Of a stretch of DNA of 64,000 nt, positions 29,486 to 37,600 are shown one piece after another. The position numbers and the translations under genes were made by a program. The notes beneath the pieces are model-generated. The model ran no database searches. It had not been told where the DNA came from and worked only from the letters and a program-made list of their open reading frames with translations. The stretch's first letter is position 1. The number at the start of each line of letters is the position of its first letter. Source of the stretch: Nitrospiraceae bacterium (GTDB lineage: Bacteria; Nitrospirota; Nitrospiria; Nitrospirales; Nitrospiraceae). Where the stretch lies: contig JBFWWG010000005.1 in the NCBI GenBank assembly GCA_050246315.1, positions 192,001 to 256,000 of the forward strand, given 5' to 3'.

Positions 29486-29560
29486 GCGGGCGTAGCTCAG
29501 TGGTAGAGTCCCAGCCTTCCAAGCTGGCTGTCACGGGTTCAAATCCCGTCGCCCGCTCCA
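29486..29560 (+). tRNA. tRNA-Gly(TCC)
   Basis: GCGGGCG/CGCCCGC acceptor stem, CTTCCAA loop, CCA. Confidence 0.97.
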
Positions 29561-29689
29561 AAAAGAAGATGTCAAGCGGTTACTCGCGAAACGTCACTCG
29601 TCGGAAAGCGGACCGGCTAGAGCAAGAGGCTAGCGGTTTTTTGTTGTATGGGTATTGACCGTTGACGCATGGCGAATGACAGTGGATGT

Positions 29690-29765
29690 GCCCACGTAGC
29701 TCAGTTGGTAGAGCACGTCCTTGGTAAGGACGAGGTCACGCGTTCGATCCGCGTCGTGGGCTCCA
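29690..29765 (+). tRNA. tRNA-Thr(GGT)
   Basis: GCCCACG/CGTGGGC acceptor stem, TTGGTAA loop, CCA. Confidence 0.97.
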
Positions 29766-29880
29766 TCCAACCTATGCTCGGACCGGCCGGTTGGGTTCGC
29801 GCACGCGTAGTCGGGTCGGTGTCTGCAGGCGGGACGGAGTCTTAATTTAATCGGCACGAATATTCCAGGGGGAGCAAGCG

Positions 29881-31086
<1,206 letters not shown>

Positions 31087-31173
31087 CAAGACCGTCAATC
31101 ATTATGGGTCGATCGAGTCAGGAAGGTCACGGTGCGATTGACCCTTGACGTGTGACGAATTACGGGGGCTTTC

Positions 31174-31323
31174 ATGCGCGAAATTATTGATCTGGCATGC
31201 ACCGAATGCAAGCGTCGGAACTACTCGACGATGAAGAACAAGAAGAACGACCCGGACCGCCTTGAGTTGAAAAAGTTTTGTCGATCCTGCCGAAAGCACG
31301 TGCCGCACAAGGAAGTGAAGTAA
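31174..31323 (+). CDS. rpmG: 50S ribosomal protein L33 (zinc-binding form; below ORF-track cutoff)
   Basis: [17 protein letters not shown]...[19 protein letters not shown]. Confidence 0.97.
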
Positions 31324-31395
31324 GTGGTGAGGCTGGGGAGTGCAGGGCGGGAGTGCGCTATGAGCGCTCAGCACTCGTTTCTCAGCATTGAGGAG

Positions 31396-31471
31396 AGGGG
31401 CATGGTGTCAATGGCTAGCACATCGGTCTCCAAAACCGAGAGTCTAGGTTCGAATCCTAGTGCCCCTGCCA
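31396..31471 (+). tRNA. tRNA-Trp(CCA)
   Basis: AGGGGCA/TGCCCCT acceptor stem, CTCCAAA loop; canonical position before secE. Confidence 0.96.
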
Positions 31472-31553
31472 TCTAGGATCGTCGCTCGTAGGCAGATCAC
31501 TCCAGCACCGGGGCAGGCCGGTTGTCAGGCTGGCGGGAGCGGAAGGGGAGAGC

Positions 31554-31748
31554 GTGTTCAAGAAATTATGGGCGTCGGTGGTCGAGTTTGTGGCGGATGT
31601 TCGAGGCGAGATCAAGAAGATCTCGTTTCCGACCAGGGCTGAGACCATTGGGTCAACCACGGTGGTGATCGTCTTCTGCATTATCATGTCGCTCTATCTG
31701 TCCGTCTTGGATTCATTTCTCGTCTGGCTCGTGAGCAAGATCATCTAG
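31554..31748 (+). CDS. secE: Preprotein translocase SecE
   Basis: EIKKISFPTR plus single TM; precedes nusG. Confidence 0.95.
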   Translation: MFKKLWASVVEFVADVRGEIKKISFPTRAETIGSTTVVIVFCIIMSLYLSVLDSFLVWLVSKII

Positions 31749-31832
31749 TCCGGTCATGTCAAGCCCTGCGGACGGAATGGCCGTACCTGCCGGGCAATCG
31801 TAGAGTGAGAGATGCAATGAGGAAGCCAAGCC

Positions 31833-32393
31833 ATGAGTGAGCAAGAGACCGCGACGACACCCAAGCAGTGGTATGTGATTCATACCTATGCGGGATTCGA
31901 AGGTCGGGTGAAAACCAGTCTCATGGAGCGGGCCGGCCAGATGGGTATGACGGAGAAGCTGGGTCAGGTCCTCGTTCCGACGGAAGATGTGATCGAGATC
32001 AAGGACGGGAAGCGACGAACCTCCAAGCGAAAGTTCTTCCCCGGCTATGTCCTGATTGAACTTGAAACGCCGCTGACGGATGAAACCTTGCAGATGATCA
32101 AGGAAACGCCGAAGGTCACGGGATTTGTGGGGGGTGGCGCGCAGCCGACGCCGCTATCCCAAGAGGAGGTCGAGTCGCTGCTGAAACAGATCGATTCCGG
32201 CACGGCGCGGCCTCGGGAGCAGATCCGTTTTGTCAAAGGCGACAATGTGCGCATTATCGACGGCCCATTTTTGGGGTTCAACGGCGCCGTGGAAGATGTG
32301 GATCCGGTGCACAACCGGGTCAAGCTGATGGTGAGTATTTTCGGGCGGTCCACCCCGGTGGAGCTAGGATTCTTGCAAGTGGAACGCATTTAG
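31833..32393 (+). CDS. nusG: Transcription factor NusG
   Basis: WYVIHTYAGFE, FFPGY, KOW IIDGPF, IFGRSTPVEL. Confidence 0.98.
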   Translation: MSEQETATTPKQWYVIHTYAGFEGRVKTSLMERAGQMGMTEKLGQVLVPTEDVIEIKDGKRRTSKRKFFPGYVLIELETPLTDETLQMIKETPKVTGFVGGGAQPTPLSQEEVESLLKQIDSGTARPREQIRFVKGDNVRIIDGPFLGFNGAVEDVDPVHNRVKLMVSIFGRSTPVELGFLQVERI

Positions 32394-32484
32394 TCATGGT
32401 GAATTAGGAATTGTGCATTCTGATTGAGGATCCGTCATTCAGAGTTGAGCATTCCTAATTCAGAATTCTGAACGGAGTGAAGGT

Positions 32485-32907
32485 ATGGCGAAGGAAGTTT
32501 CGGCGCAAATCAAACTGCAGATCCCTGCCGGCAAGGCGAATCCTGCACCACCGGTGGGGCCTTCTTTGGGTCAGCACGGCGTGAACATCATGGAGTTCTG
32601 TAAGCAATTCAACGCCCGGACACAAAAGGATGGAGACAGCATCATCCCGGTCATCATTACCGTCTACAAGGATCGCAGTTTTACATTCATCTGCAAGACG
32701 CCACCGGCGTCGGACCTGTTAAAGAAGGCAGCCGGCATCATCAAGGGCTCCGGTGTGCCCCAGAAAGACAAGGTGGGCAAGATCACGCAGGCCCAACTTC
32801 AGGAAATCGCCAAGAAGAAGATGGCCGATTTGAATGCGGCCGATGTCGATGGTGCCATGAACATTATCGCGGGAACGGCCCGCAGCATGGGCATCGTCAT
32901 CCAGTAA
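32485..32907 (+). CDS. rplK: 50S ribosomal protein L11
   Basis: [19 protein letters not shown]. Confidence 0.99.
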
Positions 32908-32935
32908 AGCATGGCATAACGATTCGCGCGAGGAG

Positions 32936-33634
32936 TTGGTCATGGGAAAGAAAATGCAGGCGGCCCTGAAAAAAGTGGAGGCTCGTGCCTATCCGCTGAA
33001 GGATGCCGTCGAACTTATCAAGCAAGCGGCCTACGCCAAATTTGATGAAACGGTCGATCTGGCCCTTCGGCTTGGCGTGGACCCCAAGCGATCCGATCAG
33101 ATGGTCCGGGGCACGACCCTGTTGCCGCACGGATCGGGCAAGCAGATCCGCATCCTGGTTTTTGCGAAGGGCGAGAAGGAGCAGGAGGCTAGGCAGGCCG
33201 GGGCCGATCACGTCGGGGCCGACGATCTCATGGAGAAAGTGAAGGGCGGGTGGATGGATTTCGATTGCGCGATTGCGACGCCGGATCTTATGGGCGCAGT
33301 CGGCAAGTTGGGCAAGGTGCTCGGTCCGCGAGGCCTCATGCCCAATCCGAAGACGGGGACGGTGACGTTTGAAGTCGCGAAGGCGATCGGCGAAATTCGA
33401 AGGGGGCGGGTCGAGTACAAGCTCGATAAGGCCGGCATCGTGCACGTGCCGGTGGGCAAGGTCTCCTTCGAGGCCTCGCGGCTGTTCGAAAACGCCCAGG
33501 CGGTGCTGGAATCGGTCGTCAAGGCCAAGCCTGCGTCGTGTAAGGGACGCTATCTCAGGACCGCCACGATTTCGAGCACGATGGGCCCTGGGATCAGGCT
33601 GGATGCGGTCGCACTGGCGAAACAATGGGCGTAA
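32936..33634 (+). CDS. rplA: 50S ribosomal protein L1 (start 32936 or 32942)
   Basis: [27 protein letters not shown]. Confidence 0.99.
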
Positions 33635-33667
33635 GCGCGTCGTGACGCTAAACGGAAGAGGACGATC

Positions 33668-34600
33668 ATGAAACGGGAAGAGAAGGCGGTCGCGGTTGCC
33701 GAACTGAATGAGAAATTCAAGCGGGCTCGGCTGGCGATCCTGACGGAATGCACCGGAATGCCGGTGGCGCACCTGACGGAGCTGCGCAAGCAGCTCCGTG
33801 GAGTGAAGGCGGAATACAAGGTCGTGAAGAACACCCTGGCCGCACGGGCCTCGGAGGGCACGGAGATCGCGCCGCTCGGGGCGTATTTCAGGGGGCCCGC
33901 CGCGGTGGTCTTGGGGTACGACGACCCGGTCAGTCCAGCCAAGGTGCTCAGGGAATTTGTCGTAGCGGAAAAGCGCGATGAGAAACTGAAGATTCTGCTC
34001 GGGGTGTTGGAAGGTAAGTTGCTTCAGGCAGCTCAGATCCATGACGTGGCCAAACTGCCGAAGAAGGACGTGCTGCTGGCGATGTTGCTCTCTACGATGC
34101 AGGGACCGGCCCGGAATTTGGTCTCTGTACTGAGCGGTGTGGTGCGGAAATTCGTCTATGTGTTGAGCGCGATTCAGGATACCAAGAAAGGGGAGGGAAC
34201 GATGCCTACTGCGGAAGGGAAGCTGTCTCAGGAAGATTTCATCAAGGCGATCGAAGGCATGAGCGTGCTGGAGCTCGCCGAACTTGTCAAGGGGTTGGAG
34301 TCGCGCTTCGGCGTGACCGCGGCGGCGCCGGTGGCCGTGGTGGCGGCCGGAGGGGCGGGGGCTGCGGCGGCGCCGGCTGAAGAGAAGACCTCGTTTGATG
34401 TCGTGCTCGCCAGCGCAGCGGCGGATAAGAAGATCCAGGTCATCAAGGTCGTCCGAGAGCTCACGAGCCTGGGCTTGAAAGAAGCCAAGGATTTGGTCGA
34501 AGGGGCGCCGAAGCCCGTGAAGACCGGTGTGGCGAAGGAAGAAGCGGACAGCATGAAGAAGAAGCTGGAGGAGGCGGGTGCGAAAGTCGAGATCAAGTAA
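33668..34600 (+). CDS. rplJ: 50S ribosomal protein L10 reading in frame into L7/L12 (uL10-bL12 fusion ORF, 310 aa)
   Basis: Residues 1-~174 are L10 (LRKQLR, VVKNTL, AKLP); no stop before the L12 sequence. Confidence 0.9.
34202..34600 (+). CDS. rplL: 50S ribosomal protein L7/L12 from an internal start
   Basis: GGAGG at 34192-34196 then ATG 34202; [37 protein letters not shown]. Confidence 0.93.
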
Positions 34601-34687
34601 TCACGCAAGCCTGAGAATCTGAGTCGTGCCTCGCGCGCGGCCGCGGGGCTGGGATGTGGTACGGATCGAGACAAAGGAGCGACACGC

Positions 34688-37600
34688 ATGCCGGATTCGA
34701 GTGGGGTTGAGTTGGTCCCTCGGAAGGATTTTTCCAGAATTCAGACGAGCATCGAGATTCCGGATCTGATCGAGATCCAGCGGCGTTCGTATGAGCAGTT
34801 CCTGCAGATGGAAAAAGAGCCCGAGCGTCGCGACGATCGGGGGTTGCAGGCCGCGTTGGCCAGCGTCTTTCCGATCGCCGACTACAACAATACCGCCGTG
34901 CTCGAATTCACGAGCTATGCGCTCGGGACGCCGAAGTACGACGTCCGCGAATGTCTCGAGCAGGGGATGACCTACGCAGTGCCCTTAAAACTGCGCGTGC
35001 GGCTGGTCGTGTTCGACAAGGAGGACAAGGGGCCGAAGCGCAAGGTGCTCGACGTGCGGGAGCAAGAGGTCTACGTCGGCGAGTTGCCCCTGATGACTGA
35101 GCGGGGCACCTTCATCATTAACGGGACCGAGCGCGTCGTCGTCAGCCAATTGCACCGGTCTCCCGGGGCCTCGTTCACGCACGACAAGGGACGGACGCAT
35201 GCCAGCGGGAAGGTGTTGTATTCCGCGCGCATCATTCCCTATCGCGGATCGTGGCTCGATTTTGAGTTCGACGCGCGGGACATTCTGTATGTCCGGATCG
35301 ATCGCCGGCGCAAGATGCCGGTCACGATCCTGCTCAAGGCCTTTGGGTTTTCCAGCGACGATCTCCTCAAGATGTACTATCCCGTCGAGGAGATCCATGT
35401 CTCACAGGGCAGGCTATACCGCAAGCTCGACCCGGAGATCCACCACGGCCTCAAATCGTCCACCGAGTTGACGGAGAAGGGCAGCAAGGAAGTGTTGGTG
35501 CGGGAGGGAGCCAAGCTCTCGAGGGTCATGATCAACAAGCTGAAGGCGGCGGGGATCAAGGAGATCCCGGTGGCTCCGGCCGAGTTGGTGGGGCGAGCCG
35601 TCTTGAGCGAGATCATCGATCCGCGAACAAAGGAGAAGGTGGCGGAGAAGAATCAACGCCTGACCGCGGAGATTCTTGAGAAGGTGGTGGAAAGCCAGGC
35701 CGAGGCCTTCAAGGTGATCTATCTCGACCAGGCGACCGCCACGCCGGTGATTTTGGATACGCTCGAAATGGAGCGGACGACCTCGAAGGAAGAGGCCATG
35801 GTCGAGATCTACAAGCGACTGAGGCCGGGCGAAACGCCGTCCATCGAGACAGCCAAGGCGCTGTTCGAAAACCTGTTTCAGAGCGCCAAGCGGTACGATC
35901 TGTCCCCGGTCGGGCGTCTCAAGCTGAACAAGAAGCTGGGGCTCGATCTGCCGCTCGAGCAACGCACGTTGACAAAGGAAGATATTGTCGAAGTCATCCG
36001 CTACTTGGTCAACCTCAAGATGGGCAAGGGGGAAGTGGACGACATCGACCATTTGGGGAACCGGCGGGTGCGGTCGGTCGGCGAGCTGCTCGAAAATCAA
36101 GTGCGGCTCGGCCTCGTGCGCATGGAGCGAAGCATCAAGGAGCGGATGAATTTGCTCGATATGGAAACGGTCCTGCCGCACGATCTGATCAACGCCAAGC
36201 CGGTGGTGGCGGCGATCAAGGAATTCTTTAGCAGCAGCCAGTTGTCTCAGTTCATGGATCAAACGAACCCGCTGGCGGAAATCACTCACAAGCGCCGTCT
36301 GTCCGCGCTGGGTCCTGGAGGGTTAACGCGGGAGCGCGCCGGGTTTGAAGTGCGCGACGTGCATCCTTCGCACTACAGCCGTATCTGCCCGATCGAGACG
36401 CCGGAAGGTCCGAACATCGGTCTGATCACCTCACTCGCCACCTATGCGAGAATCAACGAATTCGGCTTTATCGAAGCGCCCTATCGCAAGGTGTCCAAAG
36501 GGCGTGTCACAGAGGAAATCGAGTACCTCTCGGCGATCGAAGGAGACCGGTACGTGGTCGCGCAGGCCAATTCCACGGTCGATCCGCACGGGAAATTGGT
36601 GTCGGAGTCGATCACCGCCCGCTCCGCCGGCGATTTTGTCATGACCGGGCCGGACCGCGTGGAATATATGGACGTGTCGCCCAAGCAAGTGGTGAGCGTG
36701 GCGACGGCTATGGTGCCGTTTCTCGAGCATGACGACGCGAACCGCGCCTTGATGGGCTCCAACATGCAACGGCAGGCCGTGCCGCTGCTCAAGACCGAAA
36801 GTCCTCTGGTGGGGACCGGGATGGAAGCCGTGGTCGCGCGCGATTCCGGTTATGTGGTCCTGGCCAAACGCGCCGGTGTGGTCGAGAGTGTGGATGCGAC
36901 GAGAATCGTCGTGCGCGCCGATGCCGGGAAGGAGATCCGCAAGAAGGGGGACACCGGGTTGGACGTGTACGATCTCGTGAAGTTCCAGCGCTCGAATCAG
37001 AATACCTGCATCAATCAAATGCCGGTGGTCCGGTTGGGCCAACCGGTTAAGCAGGGGCAGGTTTTGGCTGACGGACCTGCGATCGATCGTGGCGAGTTGG
37101 CGCTTGGAAAGAATGTGTTGGTCGCCTTCATGCCTTGGGGTGGGTACAACTTCGAGGACGCGATTCTGCTCAGCGAGCGGGTGGTTCGGGAGGACGTGTT
37201 CACGTCCATTCATATTGAAGAGTTCGAAGTCGAGGCGCGGGACACCAAGTTGGGCAAGGAAGAAATCACCCGGGACATTCCGAACGTGGGCGAAGAAGCG
37301 CTCCGGAACCTGGACGAGAGCGGGATCATCCGCATCGGTGCCGAGGTTAAACCCGGGGACATCCTGGTCGGCAAGGTCACGCCGAAAGGCGAAACGCAAC
37401 TGACTCCGGAAGAGAAGCTGCTGCGGGCGATCTTCGGTGAGAAGGCCGGGGACGTGAAGGACACGTCGCTGACGGTGCCGCCCGGCGTGGAAGGTATCGT
37501 GGTCGACGTGAAGATCTTCTCGCGCAAGGGGCTCGACAAGGACGAACGGTCGCGCAGTATCGAAAGCGAAGACGCAATGAAGCTGCAGCGCGACCACCAG

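Follow-up and report, generated by a model that had tools for sequence, protein, structure and literature searches.

How is a ribosomal stalk built when the gene for its base runs into the gene for its arms without a stop codon? The stalk of bacterial ribosomes is usually described as the protein uL10 with dimers of bL12 bound to it non-covalently. The question is raised by a locus in a 64,000-nucleotide (nt) stretch of DNA, referred to here as the window, from a Nitrospiraceae bacterium (assembly GCA_050246315.1, contig JBFWWG010000005.1, positions 192,001 to 256,000). In this window, rplJ (uL10) and rplL (bL12) form one uninterrupted open reading frame (ORF) of 310 amino acids (aa) at 33668-34600 on the forward strand, closed by a TAA at 34598-34600, as read from the window DNA and the ORF translation. 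The same in-frame, stop-free junction was found by hand tally in 368 of 368 species genomes of the order Nitrospirales in which the junction is visible, covering four families. The explanation that accounts best for the data as a whole, and that we hold to be probable, is an order-wide fusion from which both a uL10-bL12 chain and free bL12 would be made, giving a stalk with one tethered arm.

The uL10 part ends in LSAIQDTKK, with AAA at 34187-34189 as its last codon, and is followed by the residues GEGT. No in-frame stop occurs from 34189 to 34598, so that uL10 is not encoded as a separate polypeptide ending after its C-terminal helix alpha8. A preliminary description of this DNA had reported one continuous frame through GEGT without a stop, an ATG at 34202 and a GGAGG 5 nt upstream of it, and this description proved exact. 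Its remark that the linker codons are the Shine-Dalgarno (SD) sequence itself also agrees with the DNA, where GGAGG at 34192-34196 lies within GGG GAG GGA ACG. The frame is composed of the following elements.

33668..34189, forward strand: uL10 part, aa 1-174, with no stop codon of its own (NF000955, PF00466).
34064..34180, forward strand: C-terminal helix alpha8 of uL10, aa 133-171, the predicted docking helix for dimers of the bL12 N-terminal domain (NTD) (low-confidence AlphaFold2 fragment; alignment to 1zav_A).
34181..34228, forward strand: predicted flexible tether, aa 172-187, from helix alpha8 to the first bL12 helix (coil of lowest predicted local distance difference test score, pLDDT; lies between the two NCBIfam matches).
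34190..34201, forward strand: linker codons GGG GAG GGA ACG (GEGT), in place of a stop codon and spacer (direct reading).
34192-34196, forward strand: GGAGG, SD core of bL12, inside the linker and 5 nt before the ATG at 34202.
34202..34204, forward strand: internal ATG, the start codon of free bL12 (ATG in 59 of 59 order sequences).
34202..34600, forward strand: bL12 part, aa 179-310, 132 aa plus TAA (TIGR00855, PF16320, PF00542; alignment to 1dd3_A).

Both halves of the frame are, by sequence, an ordinary and complete uL10 and bL12. The NCBIfam equivalog NF000955 (L10) matched aa 4-173 over profile positions 1-167 of 168, with 169.7 bits against a cut-off of 85, and the equivalog TIGR00855 (L12) matched aa 185-310 over positions 3-125 of 125, with 154.4 bits against a cut-off of 84.4. 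Pfam PF00466 (L10) covered aa 1-97 (99.4 bits; cut-off 22.8). In the second half, PF16320 (L12_N, dimerisation) was found at aa 188-234 and PF00542 (L12_C) at aa 243-310, and this half can be aligned to the L12 of Thermotoga maritima (1dd3_A). Its layout is an N-terminal extension of about 10 residues, the dimerisation domain, an Ala-rich hinge seen by direct reading, and the C-terminal factor-binding domain.

The genome that carries the window is 100% complete and contains a single L10 domain and a single C-terminal domain of L12 that exceed the cut-off, and these two lie inside the fused ORF. There is thus no back-up rplJ or rplL, and every uL10 molecule must begin as the fusion. A partial L12 C-terminal match of 23.7 bits (cut-off 25.9) was noted elsewhere in this genome, outside the window, at G000:C12:20297-20428. 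A second partial match below the threshold (23.9 bits) was seen at G477:C66:23606-23686, and both fall in a 96-aa open frame.

The locus was recovered in assembled contigs of other data sets. Over 33600-34700, two contigs from DNA runs of different studies (X3 and X14) showed 0 differences and 0 gaps. In an RNA library (X2), a contig spanning 33814-34700 also showed 0 differences, and one from an RNA library of another study (X17) covered 33885-34567 with 5 substitutions, all downstream of the junction, and no indel. Positions 34180-34204 were unchanged in the contigs of both RNA libraries. An inspection of raw reads over this segment had been proposed in the preliminary description; it was carried out on the assembled contigs and gave neither a stop nor an indel. 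Since these sequences are contigs and not raw reads, and since the source sample may be among the DNA runs, they lend modest support when taken alone. A second X3 contig (record 17) matches on both sides of the bL12 hinge and carries 100 other letters in place of the 94 at 34333-34428; it is probably the bL12 of another organism with a different hinge.

Conservation across the order is the stronger proof. The order is Nitrospirales according to the source names, which include Nitrospira (N.) moscoviensis, N. japonica, N. tepida and 'Nitrospirales bacterium'. The 368 genomes are distributed over the families f1 (235), f2 (110), f3 (18) and f4 (5), where the tally of f1 is the sum of 150 listed rows of the order sample, 68 further genomes of its genus g19, and 7, 5, 3, 1 and 1 others. 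Two unpublished genomes (G009 and G558) are included, and the count without them is 366 of 366. Among the relatives collected first, all 29 loci that hold both genes have them in the same frame with no intervening stop, and the thirtieth (L026) was cut by a contig end. The order sample comprised 401 genomes, of which 367 were matched and 34 were without a match; all 150 rows among the matches listed were full-length and stop-free, and 229 match rows lie outside the listing. In f2, 110 of 115 genomes were matched, and all 110 span the junction without a stop. In f3, 19 of 21 genomes were matched, 18 of them spanning the junction stop-free and one split before it, and all five genomes of f4 are stop-free at the junction. 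In g19, 69 of 81 genomes were matched and 69 of 69 were open at the junction. In a phylum sample of 201 genomes, 41 of 41 order members matched as one stop-free piece, and order genomes generally give a single match to the fused protein. The suggested search of related genomes with the junction thus gave no separate genes in the order genomes where the junction is visible. The linker reads KKGEG[DET]M in f1 and f2, PKE[DE]SM in f3 and KKG[MT]GEM in f4. In three of the five f4 genomes (L061, L062 and L065) the junction (K-K-G-M-G-E-M) holds two in-frame ATGs at a distance of three codons, which makes their bL12 start ambiguous.

Genomes that seemed to depart from this pattern were examined individually. 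G550 (L176, G550:C93), flagged with one TAG, was considered as a natural revertant and rejected, as the TAG stands at uL10 codon 75 of a metagenome-assembled genome (MAG) of 480 contigs and the junction is intact. Genomes with two matches or a short match were likewise rejected as cases of separate genes, since they show contig ends or breaks inside uL10 or the hinge and no junction stop. In G549:C22 and G379:C151 a frame break lies in the first third of uL10, with the junction intact. The TAG in G550 and these two frame breaks are probably MAG errors or population variants. Contig ends were observed within the Ala-rich bL12 hinge (query residues ~214-268) in nine genomes (G428, G465, G468, G478, G574, G579, G588, G409 and G249); the hinge is likely a weak point of assembly owing to its GC-rich, repetitive GCN codons. 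Five of the 34 order genomes without a match, all of genus g28 (G273, G348, G469, G471 and G477), are 98-99% complete, and one of them is a single contig; neither the fused protein nor Pfam L12 gave a match above cut-off in them. Two of these were searched for the neighbouring L1 and gave no match either, the whole rplKAJL region being invisible to the search. These five genomes were left out of the junction count.

Outside the order the two genes are separate. In the phylum sample, 133 of 160 such genomes were matched; 30 gave single spanning matches, each with one to four stops, and the rest were two-piece. No stop-free spanning row from outside the order occurred among the matches listed, with 131 rows beyond the listing. 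Nineteen outgroup loci were read directly. Among them are the three genomes that share the class but belong to different orders, and four loci reported with seemingly long open frames. A stop follows uL10 in all 19, with spacers of 0 to ~120 nt. In one of them (L074) the SD lies within the last uL10 codons (GGA GGT TCA TAA ATG), and some outgroups such as this one stand one step short of the fused state. On this distribution, the fusion is a shared derived character (synapomorphy) of the order within the phylum sample. A longer N-terminal extension of bL12 was considered as a further signature of the fused clade. Its length is 10-13 residues within the order, compared with 4-6 for most outgroups, but the unfused L067 and L078 have 9-12, and the signature was rejected as not specific.

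The same type of event seems to recur in other phyla, where it is sporadic. About 20 further fusion clusters (at 50% identity) contain proteins 297-332 aa long that align with the query over its whole length at 35-50% identity. In these clusters (P0123-P0201) the junction is mostly Gly-rich and directly precedes Met (GGxM, GGxxM and similar), and a few (P0131, P0132 and P0133) have no Met at the junction. Their named members are MAGs of Armatimonadota and Chloroflexota/Dehalococcoidia. Ten clusters were looked up, and their underlying 90%-identity clusters hold 1-4 sequences. A species-genome search with the Chloroflexota fusion P0128 returned 80 loci from many phyla, among which no close relative of P0128 was found; none of the 73 loci with both genes was fused. 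In five longer proteins (P0124, P0136, P0150, P0152 and P0154; 593-1056 aa) the C-terminal, bL12 portion of the query was matched separately 6-8 times each, and these proteins resemble tandem arrays of the L12 C-terminal domain within one polypeptide.

The open junction has persisted through extensive sequence change. Among 59 fully read order sequences, to which the junction counts below refer, there are 35 distinct 21-nt junctions, none of them with a stop. Of the 354 junction codons, 227 are one substitution away from a stop, which amounts to ~3.8 paths per junction, and all changes in junction length are multiples of three. At the fourfold-degenerate sites of the fused ORF, sequences of different families share an identity of 0.25-0.39, and those within f1 a mean of 0.43; by this measure the silent sites are completely turned over (saturated) between families. 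Because of this saturation, the maintenance of the linker cannot be attributed to lack of time.

The internal start is equally conserved. Every one of the 59 sequences has ATG at the bL12 start, and every one has an SD-like motif (AGGAG, GGAGG or AGGA; GGGG in one) no more than 18 nt upstream of it. In a 50-nt window around this ATG the mean minimum free energy is -4.2 kcal/mol compared with an ORF mean of -12.9 kcal/mol; in all 59 sequences this segment folds less stably than the ORF average, and the median rank falls in the weakest 3% of windows. At sequence level, the internal start thus has all the marks of a working initiation site, giving bL12 a translation start of its own. The likely products are a uL10-bL12 chain of 32.9 kDa from the first start and a free bL12 of 13.5 kDa from the internal one (computed masses). 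Free bL12 would be required because the stalk needs several bL12 per uL10. The preliminary description had proposed a 310-aa chimera plus an excess of 132-aa bL12. The continuous ORF and the SD and ATG of bL12 bear out the basis of this proposal; the products themselves are predicted, and 'excess' is better expressed as the free copies, at least 5 in number, that the stalk requires.

The uL10 part aligns without gaps to T. maritima uL10 (PDB 1zav chain A), with query residues 2-173 on chain residues 4-178 and aa 130-173 on 135-178. The alignments to uL10 of Escherichia coli and Bacillus subtilis end at residue 158 with ~7-9 residues left over, and the C-terminal helix of the window protein extends ~10 residues beyond the point where those proteins run out. 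Diaconu et al. reportedly found in 2005 that T. maritima uL10 binds three bL12 dimers. In the portions of text available from PMC3299993 and PMC1635324, bL12 is described as binding as dimers (four or six bL12) to adjacent 10-residue sites at the uL10 C-terminus. Given sites of 10 residues, the length of helix alpha8 fits three bL12-dimer sites. The three helix segments previously read from the sequence are in line with this ungapped alignment to 1zav through residue 173. An AlphaFold2 model of aa 126-225, built on a 55-sequence alignment, gave one helix at aa 133-171 (fragment residues 8-46), a coil at aa 172-187 (fragment residues 47-62) and the two N-terminal helices of bL12; only secondary structure was taken from it. 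A prediction of the complex formed by alpha8 sites 2-3, the linker and the tethered NTD with three free bL12 NTDs scored 0.29 against a mark of 0.32, was run without controls and counts neither for nor against docking. Structure prediction of the fragment, a kind of check that had been put forward, returned a succession of helix, coil and helices at low confidence and without a docked arrangement.

Together, these data suggest the following course of events. The rplJ stop codon and spacer would have been lost at the base of Nitrospirales, leaving uL10 to read in frame into rplL across a linker of 3-4 codons that is the bL12 SD sequence. Initiation at the uL10 ATG would yield the 310-aa (32.9 kDa) chain, and free-standing uL10 would arise only if this chain were cut. 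Initiation at the internal SD and ATG would yield the free 132-aa bL12 with which the three dimer sites of alpha8 have to be filled. Such a stalk would consist of one uL10 with a covalently tethered bL12, on a flexible tether of ~16 residues, together with free bL12. Two arrangements may be envisaged. The tethered NTD could fold back on the distal site and pair with one free bL12, giving 1 tethered and 5 free copies. Alternatively, the three sites could be filled by free dimers with the tethered copy as an extra, alone or paired, giving six or seven free copies and 7-8 factor-binding domains.

Several points weigh against this reading. That the junction stays free of stops may be explained in part by constraint on the purine-rich SD and the uL10 Lys residues instead of by selection for the fusion as such. 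A large share of the order is covered, though not all of it, with 229 unlisted rows and 34 of 401 genomes without a match. The RNA-library contigs prove neither a single transcript nor its ends. The AlphaFold2 fragment is of low confidence (pLDDT 60.8, predicted template modelling score 0.24) and shows no docked arrangement. Lastly, the linker may be cleaved after translation, and the intact chain in the ribosome is a presumption.

Such cleavage is the alternative that survives best. The 310-aa chain would be a polyprotein cut by a protease in the linker, the mature ribosome would hold ordinary uL10 and bL12, and the fusion would matter for synthesis or assembly only, for example by delivering one bL12 per uL10. 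The low-confidence model predicts a linker that is unstructured and exposed, and a fused state that is nearly neutral under cleavage fits the sporadic appearance of fusions in other phyla. The linker sequence, however, varies between families and contains no conserved cleavage motif, and free bL12 is already supplied by the conserved internal start. We know of no dedicated protease for ribosomal stalk proteins. Cleavage is judged unlikely.

A second alternative concerns adaptive value only and predicts the same products as the tethered-arm explanation. The fusion would be made and tolerated without benefit, the stop having been lost once through a spacer deletion and not regained, since most changes that create a stop would harm the SD of bL12 or the conserved uL10 Lys codons. 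Short in-frame spacers of the required kind exist in the phylum, as in L074, where the genes are one codon apart. The junction is nearly free of T, being the SD itself (the 18 nt upstream of the bL12 ATG contain a mean of 0.39 T), and unrelated MAGs contain small clusters of similar fusions. The Lys codons AAA and AAG could turn into TAA or TAG with the SD left intact, yet such a change is absent in 368 genomes despite saturated silent sites. A fusion without any benefit is for this reason regarded as rather improbable.

A third alternative holds that translation of uL10 ends at the junction because the ribosome slips out of frame or falls off the mRNA, either by a programmed frameshift to an out-of-frame stop or by SD-induced drop-off. 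A uL10 of normal length would thereby arise with no in-frame stop. The junction is rich in A and G and contains an internal SD, and internal SD elements influence frameshifting in dnaX and prfB. In the +1 frame, 37 of 59 sequences have an out-of-frame stop no more than 15 codons from the ATG, and in the +2 frame 39 of 59 do. The position of this stop is nevertheless not conserved (0-20 and -7 to 85 codons from the ATG), and 57 of 59 junctions, the window's own among them, lack an in-frame X XXY YYZ slippery heptamer. A programmed frameshift site was rejected, as neither a conserved heptamer nor a conserved out-of-frame stop is present. Preservation of the uL10-bL12 frame in every genome would moreover be needless under frameshifting or drop-off, which makes this alternative very unlikely. 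Finally, an error of assembly or sequencing, or else a mutation private to this genome, a caveat raised in the preliminary description because several junction codons are one substitution away from a stop, has a negligible probability and is excluded on the comparisons made, given the identical sequence in contigs of two DNA studies, the unchanged junction in two RNA libraries and the same architecture in all 368 order genomes where it is visible, many of them single-contig.

The tethered-arm explanation can be compared with known stalk systems. The canonical stalk uL10(bL12)4-6 of E. coli, B. subtilis and T. maritima (1zav/1zaw/1zax) is encoded in the same gene order, rplK-rplA-rplJ-rplL-rpoB, by complete equivalogs, and canonical rplL resembles the Nitrospirales bL12 in having its own SD and ATG. 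Canonical rplJ and rplL are separate, whereas in Nitrospirales there is no stop or spacer, and uL10 cannot be made without an attached bL12.

A different likeness is found in archaeal aP0 and eukaryotic P0, where the base and one factor-recruiting module of the free stalk proteins are part of the same polypeptide. According to the available part of PMC7768734, aP0/P0 has its own copy of the GTPase-binding tail, which leads to seven sites in archaea. The Nitrospirales stalk, with three dimer sites and a tethered copy, could work in a similar way. The appended module is a short acidic tail in aP0/P0 and a whole bL12 here, with dimerisation domain, hinge and globular C-terminal domain. The archaeal L10 models NF003095, NF003098 and NF003099 gave 28-42 bits against cut-offs of 331-381 (best 41.8 vs 381), through the shared N-terminal domain only. 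Membership of the aP0/P0 family was rejected, since these models are far below cut-off and the appended module is bL12. By analogy, the Nitrospirales fusion is best viewed as a convergent functional analogue of P0 and not a homologue.

In-frame internal initiation that yields two products from one ORF is established in E. coli for IF2 (alpha/beta), CheA (long/short) and ClpB (93/79). In these cases, as predicted here, the first start gives a long product, and an internal SD with a start codon in the same frame gives a shorter one that comprises the C-terminal part. Their products are isoforms of one protein, whereas the short product in Nitrospirales would be a whole ribosomal protein, universally a separate one, that is required in several-fold excess over the long product.

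The fused ORF is found in the order tuf - tRNA - secE - nusG - rplK - rplA - fused ORF - rpoB, with the tRNA at 31396-31468 by Rfam scan. Two further elements lie directly upstream.

33654..33662, forward strand: SD-like purine-rich stretch GGAAGAGGA before the uL10 start (direct reading of the DNA).
33632-33634: rplA stop codon, with a 33-nt gap between rplA and rplJ.

The rplJL genes of E. coli and B. subtilis are autoregulated through a leader, as stated in the accessible portion of PMC4538822. No L10-leader RNA was found by the Rfam scan of 29500-35500, which gave only tRNAs at E values up to 1. Because no leader was detected and the gap between rplA and rplJ is 33 nt, in contrast to the leader-bearing rplJL of E. 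coli and B. subtilis, the usual leader-based autoregulation may not apply in that form here, while a leader of an undescribed type, or one located further upstream, is conceivable.

The fusion is already flagged in some database records, as annotation labels only. The name 'Fused 50S ribosomal proteins L10 and L7/L12 (Modular protein)' is attached to the proteins of N. moscoviensis (P0118) and N. japonica (P0034). That of N. tepida (P0319, from G001; 95% identical) is named 'L7/L12 / L10', and its UniRef name is 'Multifunctional fusion protein'. Other records of the same ORF are called L10, L7/L12 or hypothetical protein, and some NCBI records hold only a 133-aa bL12 from the internal start. 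A full-text literature search, with subscription journals and supplements outside its coverage, returned no paper discussing a uL10-bL12 fusion. The words 'fused' and 'fusion' do not occur in this context in the available text of PMC3578206 and PMC13001810.

As far as the text available from PMC12179292 goes, bL12 copy number is 4-8, faster growers tend to have fewer copies, and the number (4, 6 or 8) is thought to tune factor recruitment and is linked to growth rate. If the tethered-arm explanation is true, Nitrospirales would have either a distal dimer with one of its subunits fixed in cis (1 tethered and 5 free) or an extra arm beyond the three sites. The fusion would also be a ready-made construct for the study of stalk assembly and arm valency, allowing direct tests of how arm number, tethering and assembly order relate to factor recruitment. 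For annotation and phylogenomics, the inconsistent names are a warning, as marker-gene pipelines that expect separate rplJ and rplL may mishandle the fused ORF; within the phylum sample searched, the fusion is at the same time a clean synapomorphy for the order. Nitrospirales include the main nitrite oxidisers and the comammox bacteria of soils, waters and treatment plants. Since the stop-free frame is order-wide, the stalk of a bacterial order that is dominant in the environment is probably of a different construction, with one arm unable to dissociate. We lean, by a modest degree, towards the wider view that all Nitrospirales ribosomes have a base covalently joined to one complete bL12 arm, which would be an independently evolved counterpart of P0 kept by selection across the order and, if so, a natural bacterial analogue of P0.

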